Shown here: one piece after another, positions 1 to 11,704 of the stretch | How positions within the stretch are numbered: position 1 is the stretch's first letter | How the letters are laid out: the number at the start of each line of letters is the position of its first letter | NCBI GenBank assembly: GCA_043810925.1 | Contig: JBDRNT010000185.1 | Location: forward strand, 1-11,767 | Length of the DNA stretch: 11,767 nucleotides | Source: Candidatus Eiseniibacteriota bacterium | GTDB taxonomy: Bacteria > Arandabacterota > Arandabacteria > Arandabacterales > Arandabacteraceae | Direction of reading: 5' to 3' | Translations under genes and position numbers: made by a program | The notes under the pieces: model-generated | Databases searched by the model: none | Told to the model about the DNA's origin: nothing | Seen by the model: the letters and a program-made list of their open reading frames with translations, nothing else

Positions 1-1175
1 ACTCCCTGGTTGTCCGACGGATTTAGCCAGAGCATCCGATGGAAAATGTGCTCCGCCTCGTCAAAGCGTCCAAGACGCCATAGACACAGACCATAGCCGT
101 GCATGCAGCGCAGAAACGGGCGGTTGTCGATATGGCCCCACGGCAGCACGCCGTCAAAGTCGTCTCCCAGGGATAGCTCGCCGATGCGCAGACCGACTTC
201 ATAATGTCGAATGGCATCTTGTGGACGGTGATCAAAGACGAGATTGCCCAGATGCGAATGGGCATCAAGGCCGCGAAGATCCGCCCGGCACAGTTCCATC
301 AAGATCTTTGCCGCCTCTGCCCGCTCGCCGGCATCTTTGAGATCGTTGGACCGAGTGATGGGATCACTAGAAGGATCGTCAGGGTCCTCACCGGGCGACA
401 CCTGCTCCATCTCGAACATGGGGCGGGGTCCACGAGCGATAATCGGCTTGGCCCATTCCTCGATGGGTTCGTCTTCTTCCCCCCAGTACTCCTGTTGGGG
501 ATACCACATGCCCATATCCTCAAGTCCCAGGGGCACCAGACCGAGGGCCTTCACGTCAATTCGGGTCGATTGAATCTCTCCGGAGAGATACGGATGACCC
601 GCATAACGCCAGTGTTTTCGTGGCCTGACGGTGACAATCGCGCCAGGCACCGCGTCCCAGTGGCGACCCGCCCGCAATGTAATCCCCCGGTCACTTCCCA
701 ACAAGCGGCACCGGACGGCCCGCTGCTTGACCGAGAGGGCCACCAGATCGACCGGTTTGCTCAGATCGAGGTCGTCGTCAGTGGCCTTGTGTTGCCGCTT
801 ATGTCGGGAAGGACCAAGCACTTCAGCAGGAAAAGGATCGAGGTTGAGCCACTTGCGGTAGGCGGCGATGTGCCGTGCACCTGCCAAAGCCCGGGGAAAC
901 ACGACCTCGGAGACCGCAACTACGTGTTCGGAACCGTCTTCGCGGCGGCATCTTGCCGTCAGCCCACGTCGCTCGTTGCCGTCGTAGTCAACATCGATCA
1001 CCGAAACCGGTTCCCCGATGACGAAGCCATCGGCCGGCAGCTCAACGTTGTCCCCGAAGGCCTGTAGGAAAGCCCAGAGCTTCTCATCATCACCGTATGC
1101 GTCGACAGTGATCTCCTCGATCATATCGTCCAACGTGTCGAGTTCCTTATTCCCTTTAGGGCTTCGTGGGTTCAT
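1..1175 (-). CDS. TPR-containing protein with N-terminal CcbP-like acidic domain (3'-partial, >=391 aa, runs off window)
   Basis: Missing from the ORF track because no stop lies in the window. My manual translation from ATG 1175 is open to position 3: MNPRSPKGNKELDTLDDMIEEITVDAYGDDEKLWAF...LDAHSHLGNL...AIRHYEVGLRIG...LPWGHIDNRPFLRCMHGYGLCLWRLGRFDEAEHIFHRMLWLNPSDNQG. The N-terminal EEITVDAYGDDE...YRKW resembles the CcbP calcium-binding family and the C-terminus has a TPR-like pattern. It starts 3 nt after the upstream stop codon. Confidence 0.85.
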   Translation of the reverse strand, partial: MNPRSPKGNKELDTLDDMIEEITVDAYGDDEKLWAFLQAFGDNVELPADGFVIGEPVSVIDVDYDGNERRGLTARCRREDGSEHVVAVSEVVFPRALAGARHIAAYRKWLNLDPFPAEVLGPSRHKRQHKATDDDLDLSKPVDLVALSVKQRAVRCRLLGSDRGITLRAGRHWDAVPGAIVTVRPRKHWRYAGHPYLSGEIQSTRIDVKALGLVPLGLEDMGMWYPQQEYWGEEDEPIEEWAKPIIARGPRPMFEMEQVSPGEDPDDPSSDPITRSNDLKDAGERAEAAKILMELCRADLRGLDAHSHLGNLVFDHRPQDAIRHYEVGLRIGELSLGDDFDGVLPWGHIDNRPFLRCMHGYGLCLWRLGRFDEAEHIFHRMLWLNPSDNQG

Positions 1176-1178
1176 CTT

Positions 1179-2333
1179 CTATTTATCCTCCCAGATACCG
1201 GCTTTCACAAGGCGTTGAATCAACGCCTTGCGCCGCATGTGGTCGGCCATGGATTCTTTCATTTCTTCTTGAAAGCGCTTTGTCTTCTTTTGGAGAGCAT
1301 AGGCGTCGGATATGTCGATAAGGGCGCGGCAGGCTTCATCATAGGCCCGGCCCGATCCGCGCGCGACAGTCTTCTGAACCGACTTCCAGGCCTTCGGAAA
1401 ATCGCTGGACAGGTTCTTCAGATATACCTCGCGCTCCTTGCGGCGCTTGATCTCCCGCCGCTTACGGTCGCGTTTTAGTATTTGTATGCGGATTTGTTGC
1501 GCATTCTCGGTATTTTTGCGCAGTTCTCCCACCGTGCGCCGGGGCGCTTCGGACCTGTCGTTTCGCAGGCCGCGCTGCCATGCCGCGAACCGGTTCTTGA
1601 TCGACTGTTCGGCCAGCTGCCCCTTGCCCTCCAGCAGTTGTTTCAGGACCGCCGTCACCACATCCCGGGGCAAGGCATCGATCCATCCATCCAAGTCCTT
1701 TTGTGAAATATCCTCGCCCTCAGCAGCCGGACTGCCCGCGCCGGCACCTGCCAGCAAGTCCGGGTCAACCTCTAGGAACTCCACCAGCGCCTGTTGAGCC
1801 GCCGTCAAACTTCCCAGGCCGGTAATGGATATAGGCTCCATCTCATCTTCATCCATCATTTCCCCGGTTACGGCCACCAGCCACCCGATGTAAAGACTGC
1901 GCATATCCCCGCGCAGCAATTCATCCCGCACCGGGGCCAGACGCGCCATCCAGCCACGGCCGTCCTCTATGGCGAAGCGATCATAATTTCCCGACTCCTC
2001 CAGACTCCAGGTAATGACCCAATGGGTTTTGGTAGCCTTGAAATCCAACATGTAAGGCACGGCCATGGTTTTCGCCGACTCTTCGGGCAATGCCTCAATG
2101 GGCAGACGCACCATGAAAACGGCCGTCATCCAGTTGGCTACATAGACGTGGGCGTCGAAACAGCGCTGCATCAAGTTGTCGGGATCGCCCTTGAAATCGC
2201 CCCAATCGTATACGTTGGCAAAACTGACGGGTGTTATCGTGGCCCGCGTTGAAAGCGCGCGCAGCTCTGCCATCTCATTTTTTGTCAATGGCTTATCAAT
2301 AGCGAGGAATTCGTAGTATTGGTATTCACTCAT
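1179..2333 (-). CDS. Conserved hypothetical protein (MSEYQYYEF-type), 384 aa
   Basis: Long ORF whose N-terminus (MSEYQYYEFLAIDKPL...LRALSTRATIT...Y.WGDFKGDP...FDAHVYVANW) I recognise from a widespread uncharacterised family. Basic, helical C-terminus. Tightly coupled to the downstream gene. Confidence 0.88.
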   Translation of the reverse strand: MSEYQYYEFLAIDKPLTKNEMAELRALSTRATITPVSFANVYDWGDFKGDPDNLMQRCFDAHVYVANWMTAVFMVRLPIEALPEESAKTMAVPYMLDFKATKTHWVITWSLEESGNYDRFAIEDGRGWMARLAPVRDELLRGDMRSLYIGWLVAVTGEMMDEDEMEPISITGLGSLTAAQQALVEFLEVDPDLLAGAGAGSPAAEGEDISQKDLDGWIDALPRDVVTAVLKQLLEGKGQLAEQSIKNRFAAWQRGLRNDRSEAPRRTVGELRKNTENAQQIRIQILKRDRKRREIKRRKEREVYLKNLSSDFPKAWKSVQKTVARGSGRAYDEACRALIDISDAYALQKKTKRFQEEMKESMADHMRRKALIQRLVKAGIWEDK

Positions 2334-2378
2334 GATCCATTTTTCCCGGCAGTTGCTGCAAAAAACGCAACAGTTGCC

Positions 2379-2387
2379 ATTCTATCA
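2379..2387 (-). promoter_or_regulatory. Candidate extended -10 promoter (TGaTAGAAT) for the 384-aa gene
   Basis: The minus strand reads ggTGaTAGAATgg about 45 nt upstream of ATG 2333. No convincing -35. Confidence 0.35.
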
Positions 2388-2426
2388 CCTCCATTAGAAA
2401 CCGTGGATCATGGACCAGGAACAAAC

Positions 2427-2455
2427 AACTTGGTCACTTGTCCACTGACCAAGTT
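2427..2455. repeat. Perfect 10-bp inverted repeat (terminator of fic, or an operator)
   Basis: AACTTGGTCA-N9-TGACCAAGTT. On the minus strand it is followed by GTTTGTT and lies about 60 nt downstream of the fic stop. Confidence 0.6.
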
Positions 2456-2513
2456 CATCGATATACATATTTCTTTGGCACCAATGTTGTTATTACCCAA
2501 TTCGTTACCCATT

Positions 2514-3581
2514 TCATTCGACATTACCCAATTGCCACCTGGCGGTTTTTTGCCACCGGGCGTTCTGGCCGCGTCCAAGGCATTCAACCTGATCTTTCGC
2601 CCGCAAGTTTTTCAGGACACGGCGGATCATATCCACGCTGACGTTCGGGTACCTGTTTTGAAGTTCGGCCACGCTGAAAGGACCGAGAGTACTGTCGATG
2701 GCGTGAAGAATTAGACCTGTTTTCTCGCCCTTGGGACTCTGAAGTTGGCCGAGGCGTTGCTCGAATTCCCGATATGCCATCTTGATGATGGACAGAATGT
2801 AATTGATATATGGCCAGGGGTCATGCTTGCCCTCATGCCAGCCCTGGGAGCTTTGCTCCAGGGTTTCGTAATACCGGTCCTTGTTCTGTTCGATGAGGCG
2901 CTCCAGGCTGATATAGCGACCGACCTCGAACCCCAGGCGGTAGCATTGCATGAGCAGAAGCAGCCTTGAAACACGACCGTTGCCGTCACGAAAAGGATGG
3001 ATGCACAGAAAATCCAGGTTGAAGGCTGCCAAAAGGACAAGCGGCGGGACTTTGCGATCCTTGATGGCATTGTCGTACAGCTCGACCAGATCCTTCGTGC
3101 AGCTCGGCGTGTCCTTCGCTGGAACAGTCTTGAAGCGGACCCGCGACCTGCCGTCCGGAAACCTTTCGATAATGTCGCCGTCTTTCTCCTTGTATTTTCC
3201 GGCATCCCAAATCTCCCCACGTGTCATACGGTGGAGTTGTAAAACGGTTTCTTCCGATACAGGGATCTTCGCACCCTGCTCATGAATCCATGTCAGGGCC
3301 TGCCGGTACCCCCGGACTTCCTCCTCATCACGATCCCGCAGGAGCGGCTCGTCGAAGACGATGGTGGCGATTCGAGATTGATCGACCTCCACGCCCTCGA
3401 TCCGGTTGGACGATACAGCGCTTTCAATGAGGGCGTGCTCCCGGAGAACCTTGAGACGCTGCGGCGATTGGCGGGTGAACAATTCCTGCTTTCCCCGCGC
3501 CTCACCAAGGTCAGCAAGGTACCAGGATGCAGCGGCCGGCACGGATTCAAACTTGCGAAAAAAAAGCCGCAGGGTCATCAT
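2514..3581 (-). CDS. Fic family protein (class II, autoinhibited AMPylase) with probable C-terminal winged helix, 355 aa
   Basis: Canonical Fic motif HPFRDGNGRVSR. N-terminal inhibitory motif (S/T)xxxE(G/N) = SNRIEG. The C-terminal segment FSVAELQNRYPNVSVDMIRRVLKNL is wHTH-like. RBS GGAGGGG lies upstream of the ATG. Confidence 0.95.
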   Translation of the reverse strand: MMTLRLFFRKFESVPAAASWYLADLGEARGKQELFTRQSPQRLKVLREHALIESAVSSNRIEGVEVDQSRIATIVFDEPLLRDRDEEEVRGYRQALTWIHEQGAKIPVSEETVLQLHRMTRGEIWDAGKYKEKDGDIIERFPDGRSRVRFKTVPAKDTPSCTKDLVELYDNAIKDRKVPPLVLLAAFNLDFLCIHPFRDGNGRVSRLLLLMQCYRLGFEVGRYISLERLIEQNKDRYYETLEQSSQGWHEGKHDPWPYINYILSIIKMAYREFEQRLGQLQSPKGEKTGLILHAIDSTLGPFSVAELQNRYPNVSVDMIRRVLKNLRAKDQVECLGRGQNARWQKTARWQLGNVE

Positions 3582-3667
3582 GGCTTTTCCCCTCCGTATG
3601 GCACACTACCCTCCTTTACTGTCATTGGCCAGGTCATGCCTGCCTGTGCCGTGCCCGTCATGGCGAC

Positions 3668-4066
3668 AGGAGTTCCCCCGCTTTCACGGACACCTGAGCA
3701 CTTGCGATCATGCTGCATGATTCGACCCTCTTGATCTCATAACTGATCGGTGACTCATAGTCCAGCGCGGAATGGCGTCTGTGAGGATTGTAGAAGCCCT
3801 CGATGAAGTCGAAGACGGCCATCCTTGCCTCCCTCTGGGCTCTGAACCGCTCACGGCTGAGGCACTCGCACTCTAAGGTGGCGAAGAACGACTCGCACAT
3901 GGCATTGTCGAAGCAGTCCCCCACCGAGCCCATCGAGGGCCGCACCCCGGCCTTGACGGCAACGCTTCCCGAAGGCAATCGAGGTATACTGCGAGCCCTG
4001 GTCCGAGTGATGGATCACCCCATCGGGCCGCCGGTGCCACAAAGCCATCTCAAGGGCCCAGAGCAC
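3668..4066 (-). mobile_element. IS3-family remnant: frameshifted 3' part of orfB (DDE integrase core) plus terminal inverted repeat
   Basis: Frame A gives VLWALEMALWHRRPDGVIHHSDQGSQYTSIAFGKRCR. After a frameshift at about 3951-3956, frame B gives AGVRPSMGSVGDCFDNAMCESFFATLECE...IEGFYNPHRRHSALDYESP. An IS3-type end AGGAGTTCCCCCGCTTTCACGGACAC lies at 3668-3693, with the usual terminal TG reading AG. Confidence 0.92.
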
Positions 4067-4426
4067 TATTGAGCCACGCATAAGTAATGTCTCATTTCAA
4101 GCGCAAAGATAGGGGTGATGCCTTGAGGAAGGAGCGGAGCAAGAGTTGATCGTCGGCGATATCCCGGGTATGACGCTCTGCACGTAGACAGAGCTCTTCG
4201 ACATCGCGAGCGGCATAGTTGGCCAAGGGGTTCATCTTCAGATAGGCCCAGAAAGCCTCGACCGGATTCAACTCAGGGGCATACGGAGGCAGGAAGGCTG
4301 AATGCACGGAGTGATTGCGGCGATGGATCTTCGCCCATGCGGATCGATGCACGCTCAGCCGGTCCCACACGATGAGGATCGGGTTGCCGAGTTGACGCCG
4401 GAGTTGACGAAGGAAACTGAGCAGGT
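4067..4426 (-). mobile_element. IS630-family remnant (C-terminal DDE region and right end), inserted at a TA within the IS3 orfB
   Basis: Translation gives LLSFLRQLRRQLGNPILIVWDRLSVH...FLPPYAPELNPVEAFWAYLK, the IS630/Tc1 signature, with the stop at 4092. It is followed by the end sequence ACATTACTTATGCGTGGCTCAA-TA abutting IS3 coding sequence. The 5' part is missing. Confidence 0.9.
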
Positions 4427-4448
4427 TGGAGTTGCCCCGGTTTGACGG
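4427..4448 (+). mobile_element. Isolated IS3-family terminal repeat
   Basis: TGGAGTTGCCCCGGTTTGACGG matches 3668-3689 at 18/22 positions in direct orientation and begins with the IS3-typical TG. It sits where the IS630 coding similarity appears to stop. Confidence 0.7.
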
Positions 4449-4499
4449 CTGGCAAGCGATTCAGATAAGGCCTAGAAGGTTCCGTGATAAACATGAGGT

Positions 4500-4781
4500 C
4501 TAAACGAAGGGTGTTCTGAATTTGCATCCCCAGTCCTCAAGATCGAATCCGATCTGGTGTGTTTCCTCATTGAACCCCAACTCCTTGCAGAGATCTGATA
4601 GCGATCCATCCCTGGCCACGCTCTTGTCAAGAAGCCATCGGCCCCTCATTACTCCATCGTCGTCTACTTCCTCGCGGTAGTCTATGGTATGTCCACGGTA
4701 GAGCATGGGCCCAGGCCAATAGACAACATCGTTATCAGAAGCTGTTCGCCGTATGTGTCCACTCTTGTTCGGTTCTGCCAT
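4500..4781 (-). CDS. Small acidic hypothetical protein, 93 aa
   Basis: ATG preceded by GGAGG (4792-4796). Extended -10 TGcTATACT at 4846-4854. Globular-looking composition, no recognisable family. Confidence 0.65.
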   Translation of the reverse strand: MAEPNKSGHIRRTASDNDVVYWPGPMLYRGHTIDYREEVDDDGVMRGRWLLDKSVARDGSLSDLCKELGFNEETHQIGFDLEDWGCKFRTPFV

Positions 4782-4810
4782 CGGTTAGCTACCTCCGTGG
4801 TTTGCGTTTG

Positions 4811-4854
4811 CCCTGCCCGCAGGACCCTGCCCTTAGGACCTGCACAGTATAGCA
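4811..4854 (-). promoter_or_regulatory. Extended -10 promoter and tandem 14-bp direct repeat upstream of the 93-aa ORF
   Basis: TGCTATACT on the minus strand (4846-4854). Tandem repeat CCCTGCCCgcAGGA / CCCTGCCCttAGGA (4811-4838), followed by a partial third copy CCTGC. Confidence 0.5.
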
Positions 4855-4867
4855 TGGGCGATGCAGG

Positions 4868-4900
4868 AAAGAACCCCCCGAACTTGTTACAGTTCAAGGG
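4868..4900 (-). terminator. Hairpin resembling an intrinsic terminator, downstream of the tRNA fragment
   Basis: Minus-strand RNA CCCUUGAACU-GUAACA-AGUUCGGGGG forms a 10-bp stem with two G-U pairs that work only on this strand, followed by GUUCUUU. Confidence 0.55.
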
Positions 4901-4907
4901 CTTAGTT

Positions 4908-4951
4908 TGGCAGCGGGGCTGGATTTGAACCAGCGACCTTTGGGTTATGAG
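4908..4951 (-). mobile_element. Attachment site: 3' half of tRNA-Met(CAT), initiator type; not an intact tRNA
   Basis: The minus strand reads CTCATAACCCAAAGGTCGCTGGTTCAAATCCAGCCCCGCTGCCA: anticodon loop CTCATAA, T-arm GCTGG-TTCAAAT-CCAGC and a CCA end. No D-arm or 5' acceptor strand lies upstream. A fragment starting at the anticodon loop is typical of tyrosine-integrase att sites. Confidence 0.9.
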
Positions 4952-5182
4952 TGTGGTGGGGTGCAAAAACAAGAGAAGACACCAGGGAACAAGAGGGATG
5001 TAACTGAGAGTGAGTTCTGCAGTTTCGGGAATGTCGTTTCTCTGATGTTCTCTCGTCTTCTACTCGATTGCTGCTTGCTTTGTTAGAAGAACATTAACAG
5101 GCCGGTGGGTAGCGGTAGTCCACGTCTATGTGGGTGTGATAGAGTATGGATAGGTGGTATCGCTGACGGCGTAGGTCATACG

Positions 5183-5393
5183 CTTTCCCGGGACGGATGC
5201 CTGAAGGTGAATATGCATTTGTCCACTGAAGATACACGTGAGAAGATAGATCAATGGCGTGTGGAGTACAAAGAGTTCCGACCCCGCAGGTCGCTCGCTG
5301 GTCTGACTCCCAGGGAGTTCACTGAGAGGACCGCCGCCAAACAAGAAAGCGCATCCCTCTGGCCAGTCATCGTCCAGTTTCAAGGGGTAACGA
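5183..5393 (+). pseudogene. Degenerate IS3-family transposase C-terminus with probable right end
   Basis: SRDGCLKVNMHLSTEDTREKIDQWRVEYKEFRPRRSLAGLTPREF is a decayed form of the IS3 orfB tail (RDECLN..WF.SL.DAR.KIE.WR..YN..RPHSSLG..TP.EF). GTCCAGTTTCAAGGGGTAACG at about 5372-5392 resembles a terminal IR. Confidence 0.8.
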
Positions 5394-5412
5394 AACTCCT
5401 GCCGTCGACGTC

Positions 5413-7080
5413 TTACCGCAGGCAGTACCTTCCGGGAGCTATTATGCTATCGGGGTCGATCACGCGCTTGATCTTGGACACCAGGTCCCAGTATGTGGTG
5501 CCGGCTTGTGTAATCAAGTGCATATGGTCGATGCCGACTCGATAAGGCACGAAGCCCTGCTGCCTGCCGGTCTCAAAAAGCGCACGATAGCATGCCTTTG
5601 CGCGCCGCGTCTCGTCCGGATCCTCACGATCGAAGAGCAGCGGCACCGTGGAGTCGAAGCACCTGTGGGAGAGGCTGGTGAGCGTTATGAGCGGCTCCAT
5701 CCTATGCTTGATGCAGATCGACTTCACGGTGTCAACGTACCGTCTCACCAGGTCGGGCTTCATCGGTATGAGCGGGGAATACCAGATGATGCCGCAACCA
5801 TCGGTCGCGGGATTCATGGGCCGGCCGCTGGCAGGTCGTCTCCCGCTTTTCCAATAGCAGAGACTGAGAGCTGTCTCCGACGGCGCCCCCTCGGCCACCT
5901 TGAAAGCCTCATCCACGTTAGCGATCTGTTGCTTGAGAGTCCGGGTCAGGCGGTCGGGAACGAGCGCCAGCAGGCGGCGCAGCAGGTCTATTCTGGTGCG
6001 TGAGAAGAATAGATGCCTTCTGGCTACGGCCTTGGTACGCTTCCCTATCAAGGCCTTAGCTGCGCTGACCAACCGTTTGTCTCCATAGAGGATTCCTCCC
6101 ACGGTCCAGGGGCCGACGTAGTTCTTCCTGCTAAGATCGTTCACCAGGGCCTCCGGCATCACCTCACCAACCGGCACGCTGCCCATGGGATAGGCCTCGG
6201 CCATGGAAAGCACCCGTCGGTCGTTCATAAGGTTGATGGACCCGCTTATGTTGCCGATCCGCTTGAGGATGTCCTGAACGGCCATCACGGCCTCTTCGAG
6301 ATCGGCATCCCGCTTGAGGGTGAAGAGAAACCCCTCTGTGGTTTCGGGGATCGGTGCCAGGGCTACGGTCATCTCGGTCACGATTCCGAAGTTGCCCTGG
6401 GAGAAAAGACCGTCAAGGTAGGGCCCAATGCCCCACTTGAAGACCTGGTCTGCGGTCTCGCCACCGAGTGAAGATAAGGCCGGGTGGTAGATGCTTCCAT
6501 CGGGAAGGACGGCTTCGAGCGATGTCACGGCTCCAAAGTGATCCACATAAGGCGTCACCCCGTAGCCCCGCTCCAAGGCATTGCCTATGAGGCTGCAGTC
6601 CGGACCCGCACCATGTACGGGCACGAGGTAGGGCGCTCCTCGCGCATCCAGGTAGTCCCGGAGTTGCCTTGGTGTGACGCCCGGCTGGACGGTCACCACG
6701 CCTAGGTCCTCGTCGAAGGCGACTATCGCATTCATCCGCGAAAGATCAACCACAACGCAGTCATCTGTGACCGGGCTTGCAGCCCCGTAGCCCCAGTTGT
6801 GACCTCTGCTTACAGGATAGAGCGGGATTCGGTGCTTGCCGGCAATCCGCACTAGCTCGGATACTTCACGCGCACTTGCGGGCCTTATGACTGCCAGCAC
6901 TTTGCGCGCTGTGGCAGTCTCATTGGAGGCGTATTGCTCCAAGGCATCCTGCTCTATGTCCACCGCCTCCCGGCCGAGTGCACGTCGCCATTCAGCGGCT
7001 GCATTGGCGAATTGAGTAGGGTTCGTATCGATCGCTGGCAACGCCGATGCCGTATTGGTTGCCACAGGGCTACGAGACAT
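5413..7080 (-). CDS. FAD-binding oxidoreductase, VAO/p-cresol methylhydroxylase family (FeeG/CndG-like candidate oxidative decarboxylase), 555 aa
   Basis: Motifs YPVSRGHNWGYG, VDLSRMN, VQPGVT, SLIGNALERGYGVTPY, QGNFGIVT, PYR and C-terminal IDPDSIIAPGRY. Start reassigned to ATG 7080, which has RBS GGGAGGT and overlaps the radical SAM gene by 11 nt. Confidence 0.92.
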   Translation of the reverse strand: MSRSPVATNTASALPAIDTNPTQFANAAAEWRRALGREAVDIEQDALEQYASNETATARKVLAVIRPASAREVSELVRIAGKHRIPLYPVSRGHNWGYGAASPVTDDCVVVDLSRMNAIVAFDEDLGVVTVQPGVTPRQLRDYLDARGAPYLVPVHGAGPDCSLIGNALERGYGVTPYVDHFGAVTSLEAVLPDGSIYHPALSSLGGETADQVFKWGIGPYLDGLFSQGNFGIVTEMTVALAPIPETTEGFLFTLKRDADLEEAVMAVQDILKRIGNISGSINLMNDRRVLSMAEAYPMGSVPVGEVMPEALVNDLSRKNYVGPWTVGGILYGDKRLVSAAKALIGKRTKAVARRHLFFSRTRIDLLRRLLALVPDRLTRTLKQQIANVDEAFKVAEGAPSETALSLCYWKSGRRPASGRPMNPATDGCGIIWYSPLIPMKPDLVRRYVDTVKSICIKHRMEPLITLTSLSHRCFDSTVPLLFDREDPDETRRAKACYRALFETGRQQGFVPYRVGIDHMHLITQAGTTYWDLVSKIKRVIDPDSIIAPGRYCLR

Positions 7081-8716
7081 GGCACACCTCCCTTTCCTCA
7101 AAGATAGGTCTAAACATCTGGTAGATCGAGTCGGCATTGTGATCACTGATAACGGTGATGCCGCTTTTGACGATATTGTCCCTGGTTTTGAGCGTGGCCG
7201 TGATCTTGGTAGCAGGCAGGACGGCATGCGGATTCTCGGAGTACCGGAGCGTAGGTGTCCCCACTTCCGAGAACATCCTTAGCACCTGATCGTTCGCCTG
7301 CTTCCAGTCCATTGTGCTATGGGACCAGGTGTCAGTTCCCCCGGTGATGCCGTATCTCCTCCTGTTCCCGGGTGAGGCGATCGGCGTTAGCGGGCTAAGC
7401 AGGAAGGCAAAGGGGTAATAACGATGGACGGGATAGCTGACGTCTGGGTAGGAGTTGAGGAGATCGATCGTCTTGGCAACCGAGTCCTCGGTTTCACCGG
7501 GAAACCCGACTATCACGGTTGATGTTGTGCTTATAAGATGCTTGCTCAGAAAGTGGACAGCCTTTAAGTTCTGATCTCTGGTTGTCTCCTTGTTCATGTT
7601 CTTGAGAATGCCATTGTCGCCGGATTCTGTTCCCAGAGCGCAGACGAAGCAGCCTGCCTTCGCCAGCATCTCGACGTTGTCCTCTGTGATTGCATCCGTC
7701 CTCACAAATGCACCCCATTTGAAATCAAGCCCGTTCTCGATAATGCCCTTGCACAGCTGCTTGATCCTTGACGGCGTAGTGAAGAGGTTGTCGTCCGTGA
7801 ATTCGACAGGCTTGCCGGGATACACATCCTGGATAGTCTTCAGCTCTTCGATCACGCACTCTATCGGTCTGGACTGCACGCGGTGCAATCCCCAGAAGTC
7901 ACAGAAAGCGCACCTGAACGGACACCCCATGCCTGCCTTTACAGGAATGGCATTGCCTATGATGCTCTCCGGGACCCTGTCCCAGGATATGGCGTGTTGA
8001 TCGAAGGTTGAGGGCTCCCGAACCCTCTTGGTGAACACCAGATGGTTGCCTTTCCTGTAGGCGATGTTGGGAGTGCACCTGTAGTCCTCACCATTCTTGA
8101 TCTTCCGCACCAACCTGAGCAAGGTGAGCTCGCCGCACTCCTCAATCACCAACGCATCAACACGGTTGTCAGTCGAGGCATCGAAGAAAAAGTTGTTGCT
8201 TTTGACCGGTTCCATGTCGAAACCCTCCAGATAGCCCTGCTTGAAGAGTGTGTATGTCTTGTAGCTCTTAAGCACCTTGATGCCACCAGCGAGGATCACC
8301 GAGCCGGGCGATAGCTCGCGTGCAGCCTGCGCAATCGCGATGACCTCTGAGGTGTGACACATGAACGTAGTTGATATGGCAACCACCCTTGGCTTGGCTG
8401 CCATAAGTCGCTTGAACTTGTCTTGTTCGAGCAGGAAGTAGTTCACAGCTTCTGTCCTGATCCCATACTTGGTCAGGAAGTCATACAGGTAGATCGTGTT
8501 GAGAGACCTGGAGACGAGGCGGGATTTATTCTGCTCGGCATATTGCTTCTCAGCAAGGTCGAGATCGCCGGCCTTGTCGACCAGACACTTGAGGAAATCA
8601 ACGGTTGCCAGGTGGCCGTTATGGTGCAAACGCATCTTGTTGAGTGTTTCCGACGTGCCACCTGCTACTTCCGTAAGCGAGTATCCTCCTACGATTAGAA
8701 CATCTATGTCGCTCAT
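7070..8716 (-). CDS. Cobalamin-binding radical SAM enzyme (class B methyltransferase-like, PhpK-like clade), 548 aa
   Basis: CxxxCxxC motif GCPFRCAFC. N-terminal B12-binding-like segment VVAISTTF...VILAGG. Class B features FTDDNL, LGTESG and VGFPGET, plus a C-terminal YGITG...WSHSTMD. RBS GAGGAGG. Confidence 0.93.
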   Translation of the reverse strand: MSDIDVLIVGGYSLTEVAGGTSETLNKMRLHHNGHLATVDFLKCLVDKAGDLDLAEKQYAEQNKSRLVSRSLNTIYLYDFLTKYGIRTEAVNYFLLEQDKFKRLMAAKPRVVAISTTFMCHTSEVIAIAQAARELSPGSVILAGGIKVLKSYKTYTLFKQGYLEGFDMEPVKSNNFFFDASTDNRVDALVIEECGELTLLRLVRKIKNGEDYRCTPNIAYRKGNHLVFTKRVREPSTFDQHAISWDRVPESIIGNAIPVKAGMGCPFRCAFCDFWGLHRVQSRPIECVIEELKTIQDVYPGKPVEFTDDNLFTTPSRIKQLCKGIIENGLDFKWGAFVRTDAITEDNVEMLAKAGCFVCALGTESGDNGILKNMNKETTRDQNLKAVHFLSKHLISTTSTVIVGFPGETEDSVAKTIDLLNSYPDVSYPVHRYYPFAFLLSPLTPIASPGNRRRYGITGGTDTWSHSTMDWKQANDQVLRMFSEVGTPTLRYSENPHAVLPATKITATLKTRDNIVKSGITVISDHNADSIYQMFRPIFEEREVCHVS

Positions 8717-8733
8717 GGCTTCCTCCTCAGTTT

Positions 8734-9657
8734 CTAAGTGTTCGCGAACGGGCGCTGGCTGGCGTCCTGATCTGCCTTCTTCCTTTCACAGCGCTGTTGT
8801 CCCACCGCACAAGCAACCTCAATGCACTGGGGCACGGAAGAGGCCTGCGCGTGCGGAGCCGGGAGATTCCTTGCTGCATGGCTTATGAATAAATCCGGCT
8901 CTTCCCGGAAGAAGCATATGCCCCCGGTAGCCGCATAGGTCCTGGCCATTAACGCGAGCCTGGGGACCACAGATCTGGGAATGTTCGTTACCGAGCCCAC
9001 GAGACACGATGAACTGGTCCCTATCTTCAGGAAGTCACCGTCTTCGATCCCCGCCACGGGGCGGAAGCCATAGAGACCGTAGAACTTCTTGCAAGGCGAA
9101 TCACAGCACCATACGGCGTGCTCGAAATGATGGTGAAAAGCCAGGATCGCAATGGCCGATTCAACCATATGTCTTGCGAGTTTGAGTGATCTGAATCTGG
9201 CATCCAGCACGAACCGGCTCACTTCGACAAGGTGCTCACCGCGCGATCTGATCGCATCATAGAGCGCAGTCATGACGTGGATGTTCGGCACATAGTCCAT
9301 GAGCGGGAGTGGATTAGGAGAACTCATCTGCGTCATGTGGCGGAGGCCTGGCACCTGTTCGAGGAGTCGATCGAGATCGCTTCGCGCGGGCGGTTCGCGA
9401 TCTTCCACCACCCTTAGATATCCAATGGGGTAGTGGCCGTCGGGGCAAACATTGAACAAGCCGAAATGGTGCGATCGCAGGTCATAGCTGTTGACGTCAA
9501 TGCCATAGTCGTTTTCGGGCACAAGGTCTCCGAGCCCGGCGTCTCTATATTCCCTGTAGCGCAGCTCGAAGAGCCTTCGAAGCTCGTCCATGTCTGCGGC
9601 TTCTCTGAATACCGAGTAGCTGCTGTCGTCCCTCTTTCGATCGTCTTCAGTCGGCAT
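8734..9657 (-). CDS. GNAT-fold acyltransferase of the LuxI/FeeM (N-acyl amino acid synthase) superfamily, about 307 aa
   Basis: LFELRYREY, GIDVNSYD, IGYLRVV, LPLM, VEVSRFVL and KFYGLYGF match the R...E.D.YD...R...E.SRF pattern of LuxI/FeeM enzymes. The insertion between the LR and E.SRF motifs is FeeM-like. Start reassigned to ATG 9657, with AGGAG 8 nt upstream. Confidence 0.82.
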   Translation of the reverse strand: MPTEDDRKRDDSSYSVFREAADMDELRRLFELRYREYRDAGLGDLVPENDYGIDVNSYDLRSHHFGLFNVCPDGHYPIGYLRVVEDREPPARSDLDRLLEQVPGLRHMTQMSSPNPLPLMDYVPNIHVMTALYDAIRSRGEHLVEVSRFVLDARFRSLKLARHMVESAIAILAFHHHFEHAVWCCDSPCKKFYGLYGFRPVAGIEDGDFLKIGTSSSCLVGSVTNIPRSVVPRLALMARTYAATGGICFFREEPDLFISHAARNLPAPHAQASSVPQCIEVACAVGQQRCERKKADQDASQRPFANT

Positions 9658-9796
9658 CTTCTCATCTCCTCTGCTGTTGTCGTCTCTACTACTTTGAACG
9701 AGGGACAAGTGACGGATTCGGAGGCTGGACTCTAAGATAAACCGATGCTTGGCAGGGCTGCGTATCGGGTGGCGTCACGCACAGCACTGTTTTGGT

Positions 9797-9827
9797 TTGA
9801 CAGGCCTCTCCTAACCTGTTGTATAAT
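9797..9827 (+). promoter_or_regulatory. Sigma70-type promoter for the ECF sigma gene: perfect TTGACA and TATAAT with a 19-bp spacer
   Basis: TTGACA at 9797-9802, TATAAT at 9822-9827. Dyad ACAGG-N10-CCTGT spans 9800-9819. Confidence 0.7.
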
Positions 9828-9882
9828 GGCGCAGTATGGAACGGGTGCCTGTGTGGGATGCCGATCTCAGAGGGTTGCGAAA

Positions 9883-10503
9883 TTGAGCGAGGAATCCTGG
9901 CCTGCCTTCTTGGATATGCTCGAAAGCGATCCCAAGGCTGCCTTTGCCGCATTCTACCGTTTGGCAATGGCAACACTGTCGCTTGCTCCCCCCAGACAGA
10001 TGCGCGGCCTGAGCCAGGAGGATTGCCAGGATCTCATCCACGAGGTGGTCTTTCACTGTGTCAGGGACGATTTCCGAGTTCTGCGGCGGTATGTTGACAT
10101 GGGCAAGCCTTTCGTGGCCTGGCTGTACACCATTGCTCACCACAAGTGCTTGGATTACTTGCGAAGCCACGACATCAAGGTCCAGGTTGTGTCTATCCAT
10201 GAAAATCCGGAGGGTAAGGGACTCGAGAACGTGCTTGCTGATCCGGCCAACGGTCCTGATAAGCGTTCCGAGGACGCCGACCTCGTCGCGATCGTCAAGA
10301 AAGCTATGGGCCAGCTTGGGGAACGCTGCCGGTTGCTCCTCGAGATGGCGGCCGACGAGTTCATGCCAAAGGAAATGGCTGCAGTCTTGGGGCTATCCCC
10401 GGACCAGAACAAGAAAATATCGGACGACTTAAGATATTGCCGGAAACGGCTTAAGCAGCTCCTTTCCGAGGCAGGCTTTGATATGGGATTTTTCACGGGG
10501 TGA
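9883..10503 (+). CDS. ECF-type RNA polymerase sigma factor, about 206 aa
   Basis: Region 2 EDCQDLIHEVVF...FVAWLYTIAHHKCLDYLR and region 4 AMGQLGERCRLLL...PKEMAAVLGL...YCRKRLKQLL. Start reassigned to TTG 9883 (GAGGG upstream) because the track's start at 9745 lies upstream of the promoter. Confidence 0.93.
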   Translation: MSEESWPAFLDMLESDPKAAFAAFYRLAMATLSLAPPRQMRGLSQEDCQDLIHEVVFHCVRDDFRVLRRYVDMGKPFVAWLYTIAHHKCLDYLRSHDIKVQVVSIHENPEGKGLENVLADPANGPDKRSEDADLVAIVKKAMGQLGERCRLLLEMAADEFMPKEMAAVLGLSPDQNKKISDDLRYCRKRLKQLLSEAGFDMGFFTG

Positions 10504-10666
10504 CAGATTGGACTTGAGGCTGATCGACGGTGTGAGACGCAGACTAGATAAAGGGCAGATAATGTTCCGAAATTATGCGGCCTCATCGTTAGTAAGTGTG
10601 GCAAGGATTGTGAACGTTGCTCCCCACCGGATACCGGGTGGGCTCAAAGCGAGGTGGATAGCATAA

Positions 10667-11704
10667 GTGTCGGATACACCGGATACAGCCAACAGGGGTA
10701 ATGACTCCTCAAACGAAGATGCGGTTCTGAATAGGCTGATACGGATGAGCCGGAGATCAAGAGAAGAGAAGTTCGTGCGCCCCGACGAGGAGACGATCAC
10801 GGCATATCTCATGGGGACAGCGACTGCCGCTCAGAAGAGTGTAGTCATGGAAGCCTTGGAGAGGTCATCGGCGTTTCGGCGAGAGCTCCTCGCCATGGCG
10901 GGGGACATGCAAACGCTCTCTGTGGATCAGCTGGAAGAGATCCGCAAGAGATCCCAGTTGATCAGGCCTCCCTCATATGAGGAGTTCTTGGCAAGCAGAG
11001 GGGATACTGCTGCGCGGCATGGAGATACTCTAACGCTGTGGGCCAGACTGGTGAGGTGGCGTATCCCCCAACTATATGTTCCCATTGCAGTTGCTGCAGC
11101 TGTTATCGTTCTGGCAATCGTCAAGACCGGCATGCTCCCAGTCACGCGGAAGCCGATGGAGAGCCGCGTGCCCGGTGTTGCAGTAGGGCCAGACAGCACT
11201 CCACAGGTAATTGAGTTGGCCGAAGCTACGCTTGTTGAACGGGGAATCGAGCCGGGGTTACTAATATCCAATGTCACCCGCGGGGCGGCGGCACATGCGG
11301 CTGAGAAGGCTTACGACACTCCCAAAGAGGCAGCGATGGCAGCCTTCCTGTCAATGCTCACATATGACTACGGTAGCGGCAGGTTCGCTTTTTGGCCGCC
11401 TCCTGCCGGGCCGACCCCGACGGGTCACTACCGGCCGACATCCCTCATCCTTGTCAGTGAGGCCGGCCAGGAGATCCAGCGCGTTATCGCGAAGATACCG
11501 GGTGGGGGCCCGGAAGGGGATGGCAAGCGACTGGAAGCCTGGGCTATCACGTTCCCATCGCGTGATCTATACCGAATCGAGCTCCAGGAAGATAGCACCA
11601 GGGTCCTGTGGACGCCCGAAATGGGTGACACTGCCTGCATCGCCCTGGTCGCTCCCGCAGACAGTGGTTACAAGGTGGTTGCATCGGAATTAAGACTGCG
11701 TTAG
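10667..11704 (+). CDS. Putative membrane-anchored anti-sigma factor, 345 aa
   Basis: Lies directly downstream of the ECF gene. N-terminal RPDEETITAYLMGTATAAQKSVVMEALERSSAFRRELL is a ZAS/zf-HC2-like helix pattern. Single TM segment LYVPIAVAAAVIVLAIV, then a Pro-rich linker and a beta-rich C-terminal domain. GTG start with GAGGTG RBS. Confidence 0.8.
   Translation: MSDTPDTANRGNDSSNEDAVLNRLIRMSRRSREEKFVRPDEETITAYLMGTATAAQKSVVMEALERSSAFRRELLAMAGDMQTLSVDQLEEIRKRSQLIRPPSYEEFLASRGDTAARHGDTLTLWARLVRWRIPQLYVPIAVAAAVIVLAIVKTGMLPVTRKPMESRVPGVAVGPDSTPQVIELAEATLVERGIEPGLLISNVTRGAAAHAAEKAYDTPKEAAMAAFLSMLTYDYGSGRFAFWPPPAGPTPTGHYRPTSLILVSEAGQEIQRVIAKIPGGGPEGDGKRLEAWAITFPSRDLYRIELQEDSTRVLWTPEMGDTACIALVAPADSGYKVVASELRLR

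Follow-up and report, generated by a model that had tools for sequence, protein, structure and literature searches.

The window, which comprises the entire 11,767-base contig C185 of a binned Candidatus Eiseniibacteriota genome (G000; 3.85 Mb, 185 contigs, 91.7% completeness), carries a three-gene operon for a FeeM-type N-acyl amino acid synthase, a class B radical S-adenosylmethionine (SAM) enzyme and a flavoprotein. Divergent from it lies a gene pair for a sigma factor of the extracytoplasmic function (ECF) type and a single-pass anti-sigma factor (Table 1). Translation starts were chosen by their fit with the N-termini of homologues (alignment, tblastn and BLASTP). With these starts, the synthase and radical SAM genes are 17 nucleotides apart (8717-8733), there is an 11-nucleotide overlap of the radical SAM gene with the flavoprotein gene (7070-7080), and the synthase and sigma genes share a divergent region of 225 bp (9658-9882). 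An earlier note on this DNA had described the five genes as one module with this spacing and with no LuxR gene nearby. The listing of open reading frames (ORFs) and the family assignments bear out all five genes, the three distances were reproduced, and a scan of 17 window ORFs found no LuxR-type domain.

Table 1. Genes and candidate promoters of the five-gene module (window positions)
Feature	Position	Strand	Details
FeeM-type N-acyl amino acid synthase	8734-9657	-	307 residues; ATG at 9657 (mechanical ORF up to 9708); operon gene 1
Class B (cobalamin-type) radical SAM enzyme	7070-8716	-	548 residues; distant PhpK-like methyltransferase
FAD-linked oxidase/dehydrogenase, 4-phenol-oxidising VAO/PCMH subgroup	5413-7080	-	555 residues; ATG at 7080 (ORF up to 7227)
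ECF sigma factor	9883-10503	+	206 residues; TTG start at 9883 (ORF from 9745)
Single-pass anti-sigma factor	10667-11704	+	345 residues
Candidate ECF-type operon promoter, TCCGAA-N16-CGTTC	9696-9722	-	ends 38 nucleotides upstream of the synthase ATG
Candidate ECF-type anti-sigma promoter, TCCGAA-N15-CGTTA	10566-10591	+	within the 163-nucleotide sigma/anti-sigma gap

The sigma factor passes the thresholds of TIGR02937 (sigma70-ECF; 53.9 bits, cut-off 42.9, residues 83-239 of the long ORF) and of Sigma70_r2 (27 bits, cut-off 24), and of the sigma regions it has 2 and 4 only. Its third-best NCBIfam match, the type III-E CRISPR-associated RpoE-like family NF041236, is too weak for membership, with 42.3 bits against a cut-off of 100. 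The type III-E CRISPR system also employs a TPR-CHAT protease.

Scans of public genomes and metagenomes yielded the genomic context of three close synthase relatives (L002, L006 and L007), which together with the window make up four loci. In L002, a Krumholzibacteriia genome from a phylum other than that of the window, the synthase, radical SAM and flavoprotein genes occur in the same order as here (40%, 55% and 62% identity), the radical SAM gene directly following the synthase gene. The same strand encodes orthologues of the sigma factor (51%) and the anti-sigma factor (36%) about 2.7 kb farther downstream. L006 encodes a sigma orthologue (44%, fragment) and, in divergent orientation to it, two synthase paralogues together with a methyltransferase of the ICMT type. 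Association of the synthase genes with ECF genes, as the earlier note had envisaged it, therefore recurs outside the window: sigma-synthase linkage is seen in three of the four synthase-clade loci, the window included, and in three different arrangements. Moreover, the homologue clusters of the synthase and of the radical SAM enzyme have longest contigs of 7774, 9520, 11403 and 47593 in common, and these four shared values suggest that the two genes reside on the same contigs. Within the phylum of the window, the synthase as well as the anti-sigma factor was found in 1 of 18 genomes, in both cases G000 itself, and no second copy of the sigma or anti-sigma gene was found in G000.

The upstream regions of these loci revealed a common motif, T[TC]CGAA-N15/16-CGTT[AC]. 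It precedes the synthase gene in the window and in L002 with an identical spacing of 16 nucleotides and lies 38-61 nucleotides before the synthase start. It is also present where an unusually long gap separates the sigma gene from the anti-sigma gene, namely in the window, in L002 (17612) and in a further locus, L021 (1396). At L002, the motif additionally precedes genes for two secreted proteins and for a 995-residue protein with a type-IX-secretion-style tail; at L006, it precedes small ORFs and the synthases. Taken together, the window, L002 and L006 contain seven sites compared with 0.22 expected from first-order Markov simulations (n=300), none of which reached seven, an enrichment that is optimistic since the pattern was defined after the sites had been seen. 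A reduced 9-base pattern yields 2, 4 and 1 sites (window, L002 and L006, respectively) versus 0.35, 1.00 and 0.16 expected. All seven sites are intergenic, are oriented towards the next gene and end 38-75 nucleotides before its start. Genome-wide, G000 has 19 occurrences, of which 15 fall inside long ORFs; the remaining four are intergenic and correctly oriented, two of them on C185 and two on contig C134. The identical spacing and position of the motif in two phyla are hard to ascribe to chance.

On the basis of linkage and motif, we consider it probable that the ECF sigma factor drives the operon. The earlier note had suggested that it drives production of a modified acyl-amide; sigma control is backed by three of the four loci and by the shared motif, whereas the product is inferred. 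The opposing explanation, a coincidental neighbourhood with an operon transcribed independently of the sigma factor, can draw on several observations, all of which count against our proposal. The 3.4 kb of upstream context of the synthase relative in L007 lack a sigma gene and instead encode a GAF/sigma-54 activator, and a sigma-54-type box is present there once versus 0.07 expected. Genomes G176 and G059 contain close sigma/anti-sigma or anti-sigma genes and gave no synthase match in a phylum-wide search, and the association of the synthase with the sigma pair is therefore not obligate. Our proposal as a whole is further limited in that the window is a short contig (11.8 kb) from a binned genome and may be mis-binned. 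Considering the linkage in three different arrangements and the directional motif with its conserved spacing across two phyla, we nevertheless regard mere coincidence as very improbable, and read L007 as an alternative regulatory wiring within the same synthase clade. In this locus, the box TGGCAC-N5-TTG (3233-3246, +) and a short ORF precede the synthase relative, and the GAF/sigma-54 activator is encoded at 448-2040 (+).

Upstream of the sigma gene itself, no TCCGAA/CGTT motif was found in the window, L002 or L006, which suggests that the sigma factor induces its own inhibitor rather than itself. A scan for consensus sigma-70 promoters called none upstream of the sigma gene, and by eye TTGACA and TATAAT boxes with a 19-nucleotide spacer are seen there; that the gene is read by the housekeeping sigma factor is a weak suggestion.

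Two observations concern the relatives of the operon. In L006 (922-3264, +), two tandem synthase paralogues and then an ICMT/PEMT-type membrane methyltransferase follow the same motif; the product of this locus might be an N-acyl amino acid methyl ester, unlike that of the window. The two secreted proteins of L002 (8364-9765, +; about 217 and 207 residues, signal peptides by eye) match no family; their genes are located between a motif site and the synthase gene and are without counterpart in the window.

The anti-sigma factor matched no family in a Pfam/NCBIfam scan. It is predicted to be composed of an anti-sigma domain (residues about 36-109), a single transmembrane helix within residues 125-155 and an outer domain (183-345). 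The one hydrophobic helix, modelled as helix 125-155, agrees with the single membrane passage assigned before. An AlphaFold2 model based on a 71-sequence alignment reached a predicted local distance difference test score of 82.4 (56 with a 6-sequence alignment). Among 48,161 chains, the top three structural matches of its N-terminal part are the anti-sigma factors RsiW (Z 6.2), RslA (5.8) and MucA (5.4), values that are modest, as Z below 8 lies in the chance range for helical bundles. Residues 31-95 are devoid of His and Cys, and hence of the zinc ligands (HxxxCxxC) of zinc-binding anti-sigma factors. The outer domain, for which the earlier note had envisaged a structure prediction, was modelled as a small alpha/beta part followed by a fibronectin type III (FnIII)-like sandwich (Z about 5); the model lends no support to the autoinduction that had been proposed for it.

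A word-based search retrieved only 5 relatives of the anti-sigma factor. By contrast, a profile search of 1.84 billion representatives returned 346 clusters (50% identity), 219 of them at E <= 1e-10. The family occurs in 11 of 208 genomes of the phylum to which L002 belongs and in 1 genome of a 401-genome Acidobacteriota sample, in which 5 candidates per genome were scored. We fetched 13 sigma/anti-sigma loci from other genomes (the window is not among them), and in 12 of these a sigma orthologue is encoded directly upstream of the anti-sigma homologue. A profile search identified a CHAT-domain gene at 9 of the 13 loci, one of them as a fusion, and FeeM-like genes were present at only 2 (L002 and L034). 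The conserved partner of this family is therefore the protease and not the lipid operon. A pair of TPR-CHAT genes comes immediately after the anti-sigma gene of L002, the first one starting 58 bases past that gene's stop codon. The fusion (L047, G214:C429, 3328-6690, +), encoded directly after a sigma orthologue, is a protein of 1120 residues that unites the anti-sigma domain of this family (2-64), a membrane helix (93-126), TPR and CHAT (783-1118), and thus represents a DdvA-like architecture outside the Myxococcota. A His and a Cys residue are invariant in all 8 aligned CHAT proteins and form a candidate catalytic dyad. The five CHAT proteins with clear starts have signal-peptide or lipoprotein-like N-termini by eye.

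These loci also contain two further genes of note. In L034 (G102:C1), the gene immediately upstream of a sigma/anti-sigma pair from this family encodes a 451-residue receiver/FeeM-like fusion (9811-11166, -). Its neighbourhood also contains another receiver protein, a histidine kinase with an FHA domain and a TPR-repeat Ser/Thr kinase. In L002, a 112-residue ORF (15571-15909, +), which corresponds to the C-terminal end of a CHAT domain only (59 bits), is situated between the biosynthetic and the sigma genes and is probably a gene remnant.

How the sigma factor might be released has been envisaged in two ways, and the distribution of these genes bears on both. In the earlier note, the outer domain of the anti-sigma factor was suggested to sense either the modified acyl-amide lipid or a damage or proteolytic cue. 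Autoinduction would mean that the acyl-amide, once exported, is bound by the outer domain and releases the sigma factor in a positive loop; the joint inheritance of the synthase operon and the sigma/anti-sigma pair, and the lack of an assigned function for the outer domain, speak for it. The anti-sigma family, with 346 clusters at 50% identity, is, however, much bigger than the synthase clade with its 14 clusters at 90%, FeeM-like genes are much rarer than CHAT genes at the fetched loci, and an FnIII-like fold, in our reading of the low-scoring match, more commonly serves protein contacts than it forms lipid pockets. We therefore consider autoinduction improbable. The proteolytic cue is in better agreement with the nine CHAT loci, the fusion among them. 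We thus propose, tentatively and with somewhat less than even confidence, that a TPR-CHAT protein provides the input. Speaking against such an input, 4 of the 13 fetched loci have no CHAT gene in the stretch examined, and the window itself contains no TPR-CHAT gene.

The contig ends 63 bases after the stop codon of the anti-sigma gene, and by analogy with the related loci a TPR-CHAT gene is expected just beyond this end. Among the sequencing runs listed as containing this DNA there was no RNA run. Contigs assembled from two DNA runs (small shares, 0.16 and 0.12) were three in number and short; they lie inside 11263-11596 and none reaches the contig end. Elsewhere, G000 encodes five TPR-CHAT paralogues. 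At its start, contig C134 (L043, 1-13499) carries the final 46 residues of a CHAT protein; then come a motif site (877, +), genes for three large surface proteins that end in FlgD_ig or Por_Secre_tail (1195-8819) and a TPR-CHAT gene (9488-12685). Its second motif site (13247, -) precedes a small lipoprotein-like ORF. C134 may be part of the same regulon. That it continues the window contig is a guess from the 46-residue CHAT tail, and this too limits the case for a protease input.

Regarding the enzymes, the synthase matches the Pfam family FeeM (PF21926) above its cut-off (E 9.6e-9, 35.6 bits, cut-off 27), with a match that spans residues 150-220 only; a match to Acetyltransf_5 is borderline. 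LuxI-type Autoind_synth (PF00765) gave no match at E <= 0.01. The clade is rare (14 clusters at 90% identity among 5.8 billion proteins), and 12 of the 14 clusters are annotated with PF21926 in a precomputed column. In a language-model Atlas, whose neighbours serve as leads only, the nearest clusters are FeeM-domain proteins and a 'long chain N-acyltyrosine synthase' (0.94-0.96). Membership in the PEP-CTERM/exosortase-linked acyltransferases was rejected (TIGR03694, 20.5 bits, cut-off 112).

The flavoprotein matches FAD_binding_4 with 97.8 bits. Its matches in the PDB include 9fge (E 2.6e-78) and p-cresol methylhydroxylase (PCMH; 1dii, E 1.2e-63), and it aligns with eugenol oxidase at about 1e-49 to 1e-51 and with vanillyl-alcohol oxidase (VAO) at about 1e-42. 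Other listed VAO-family enzymes scored 5e-14 or weaker, so that the 4-phenol oxidases are 28 to 64 orders of magnitude better. Tyr98, Tyr513 and Arg514 of the flavoprotein align with Tyr95, Tyr473 and Arg474 of 1dii, which we take to be the phenolate-binding residues of that enzyme. Judged by these alignments, the flavoprotein is a member of the 4-phenol-oxidising VAO/PCMH subgroup, as are FeeG and CndG. The placement of the latter two is stated in excerpts of two published accounts (PMC11350588; PMC11959600), according to which both enzymes turn N-substituted tyrosine, by oxidative decarboxylation, into a product of the styryl type, which in the fee and hyellamide cases is an enamide.

The radical SAM enzyme matches Radical_SAM (70 bits) and displays the CxxxCxxC motif at residues 265-272. 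Its match to the B12-binding domain PF02310 (E 7.6e-4, 19.7 bits) stays under the 32.1-bit cut-off, and the domain is annotated, again in the precomputed column, in many of its orthologues. The best NCBIfam model is that of the P-methyltransferase PhpK (TIGR04479; 275.1 bits, residues 22-487). PhpK and BcpD thereby constitute the top curated family for the enzyme, with a full-length match; the score of 275 is, however, far from the cut-off of 600 bits required for family membership, and phosphonate genes were not seen in the window. PhpK methylates an N-acetylated amino acid analogue. Because no phosphonate genes were seen, C-methylation is likelier than P-methylation, and the enzyme is, from its sequence, probably a distant PhpK relative acting as a C-methylase.

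Since the pairing of a FeeM-like with a FeeG-like enzyme has a described precedent, tyrosine is the indicated amino acid. A fatty acyl group would be attached by the synthase to the amino nitrogen of an aromatic amino acid, with tyrosine as the likeliest candidate. Oxidation of the tyrosyl side chain via a quinone methide would be the task of the FeeG/CndG-like flavoenzyme, and the PhpK-like enzyme would contribute a methyl group. The outcome of the flavin-dependent step could be oxidative decarboxylation to an enamide, desaturation or hydroxylation. Understood in this manner, the operon would be a minimal fee-like pathway, and its product likely a methylated, side-chain-oxidised N-acyl-tyrosine derivative. 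That the product derives from N-acyl-tyrosine at all is a proposal we favour by a modest degree of confidence. Several results weaken this assignment: kinship to FeeM is remote, a profile of the synthase clade matched no solved structure at E <= 0.1, the amino-acid substrate of the synthase is deduced solely from the partner flavoenzyme, and the radical SAM enzyme falls short of both the PF02310 and the TIGR04479 cut-offs.

Two other roles for the enzymes have to be considered. They could make or modify something other than an N-acyl-tyrosine lipid: the substrate of the flavoenzyme and the radical SAM enzyme might be a peptide or a 4-alkylphenol in free form, or else the synthase might transfer its acyl group to a different amine. 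The partial FeeM match would allow this, and closely related 4-phenol oxidases, to judge from the names of the structural matches, use small lignin-type phenols. We nonetheless hold such a product to be unlikely in view of the tight coupling of the genes (Table 1), the three-gene order kept across phyla and the precedent for a FeeM and FeeG pair; moreover, no PCMH-type cytochrome subunit was found among the window ORFs scanned. The synthase might, alternatively, be an acyl-homoserine-lactone synthase with its LuxR partner encoded elsewhere. LuxI and FeeM share a common fold, and clusters of acyl-homoserine-lactone synthases do appear in the Atlas from rank 22 downward (0.92). Against the FeeM score above threshold, the missing Autoind_synth match and the phenolic substrate indicated by the partner enzymes, this alternative is scarcely credible. 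To our knowledge, FeeM-type enzymes are not normally paired with LuxR, and the view of the locus as a LuxR-less quorum-sensing circuit, put forward in the earlier note, is not supported, as the synthase passes the FeeM threshold and gave no Autoind_synth match.

The earlier note also stated that no system with such a layout had been described. Within the open-access literature searched, this is partly right: the closest systems on record are the fee cluster for the enzymes and DdvS/DdvA for the regulators. The fee cluster from environmental DNA, with FeeM and FeeG, and CndG of chondrochloren biosynthesis are the closest known enzymes, a likeness that is founded on family placement and not on direct comparison with the FeeG or FeeM sequences. 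In contrast to the fee cluster, the operon consists of three genes only, has a class B radical SAM gene as an addition and is connected to an ECF sigma factor, and the window encodes no dedicated acyl carrier protein or acyl-activating enzyme. N-acyl tyrosines that bear dehydro and C-methyl modifications occur in nature; the stieleriacines are one example, as given in excerpts of two reports (PMC7293339; PMC12479983). Their tailoring differs: where the present operon has its VAO/PCMH flavoenzyme and class B radical SAM enzyme, those pathways employ a nitroreductase along with ThiF/TcdA-like and SfmM2-like enzymes, the latter a methyltransferase.

On the regulatory side, the available portions of one report (PMC11506125) describe DdvS/DdvA of Myxococcus xanthus as an ECF sigma factor and a transmembrane anti-sigma factor with a fused periplasmic, caspase-like TPR-CHAT, which is proposed to cleave itself as the site-1 step before RseP; DdvA-like proteins are reported there only from Myxococcota and one Comamonas. 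As far as this description goes, the window shares with it the ECF sigma factor and the single-pass anti-sigma factor, in which an N-terminal sigma-binding domain like the three-helix one of DdvA is predicted. Unlike DdvA, the window anti-sigma factor (345 residues) contains neither TPR nor CHAT in its outer region of about 190 residues, and its anti-sigma domain is without zinc ligands. Among its relatives TPR-CHAT is mostly a separate exported protein, with L047 as the only fusion. The regulons differ as well, CBASS/CRISPR defence in the portions describing DdvA versus, by inference, a lipid operon and surface proteins here; and whereas the distribution of DdvA-like proteins appears narrow in the same portions (PMC11506125), the window anti-sigma family extends to other phyla. 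For the ECF54 group, a partial account (PMC8999054) states that CHAT proteins are conserved nearby and that an anti-sigma factor is lacking; compared by this description only, the CHAT neighbours are a likeness and the anti-sigma factor present here is a difference.

Combining these observations, we suggest the following mechanism. The sigma factor would be held at the membrane by predicted binding to the single-pass anti-sigma factor until it is released, most probably through cleavage of the outer part of the anti-sigma factor by an exported, caspase-like TPR-CHAT protease. Once free, it would transcribe from T[TC]CGAA-N15/16-CGTT[AC] promoters, one of which would serve the divergent three-gene operon; a second, at the anti-sigma gene, would give negative feedback, and further promoters probably serve the type-IX-secretion-style surface proteins on C134. 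That the island is a self-regulated biosynthetic unit, in which an ECF-driven lipid operon is combined with its own inhibitor and a TPR-CHAT input, seems to us evenly balanced between right and wrong. The broader notion, that the window shows one end of a three-part envelope signalling family which is widespread and so far undescribed, is rather doubtful. In such a family, an exported TPR-CHAT protease would cut a split-DdvA anti-sigma factor, and the freed ECF sigma factor would turn on a surface programme from TCCGAA/CGTT promoters, which in this lineage would include the N-acyl-tyrosine lipid.

If true, the locus would represent the first sigma-controlled N-acyl amino acid pathway, its predicted product would join the bioactive N-acyl-tyrosine lipids as a new representative, and the surface programme would couple type-IX-secretion-style proteins with a new lipid, possibly a surface or signal molecule. 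It would also be a non-CRISPR relative of the protease/anti-sigma/sigma logic of type III-E. Descriptions of a periplasmic TPR-CHAT as the first anti-sigma protease are until now confined to the fused DdvA; a version with a separate TPR-CHAT protein in other phyla, within a family of some 346 clusters, would widen this idea. The sigma factor, the anti-sigma factor and the candidate promoter set are now defined by sequence.

Just downstream of the flavoprotein gene, the window contains fragments of transposase genes at 3658-3978 (-), 4092-4370 (-) and 5105-5545 (+), with rve_3/rve_2, DDE_3 and rve_3/IS3 matches, respectively; in the third, the transposase remnant covers about 5105-5320. These fragments suggest that the island is bordered by an insertion-sequence graveyard. 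Owing to the conserved linkage, the occurrence in a single one of the 18 genomes of the phylum and the flanking transposase remnants, the five genes are taken to travel as a unit, and the module looks like a rare, horizontally acquired one.

A search of the window with Rfam at gathering thresholds, cobalamin riboswitches included, and with a tRNA scan returned nothing. Beyond the transposase fragments, the window encodes a Fic-domain protein of 355 residues (2514-3581, -; Fic 58.6 bits), a possible adenylyltransferase. Its gene is preceded by two ORFs without assignment, 1179-2333 (-) of 384 residues and 3-1175 (-) of 391 residues, the latter of which shows weak TPR matches and runs off the contig.

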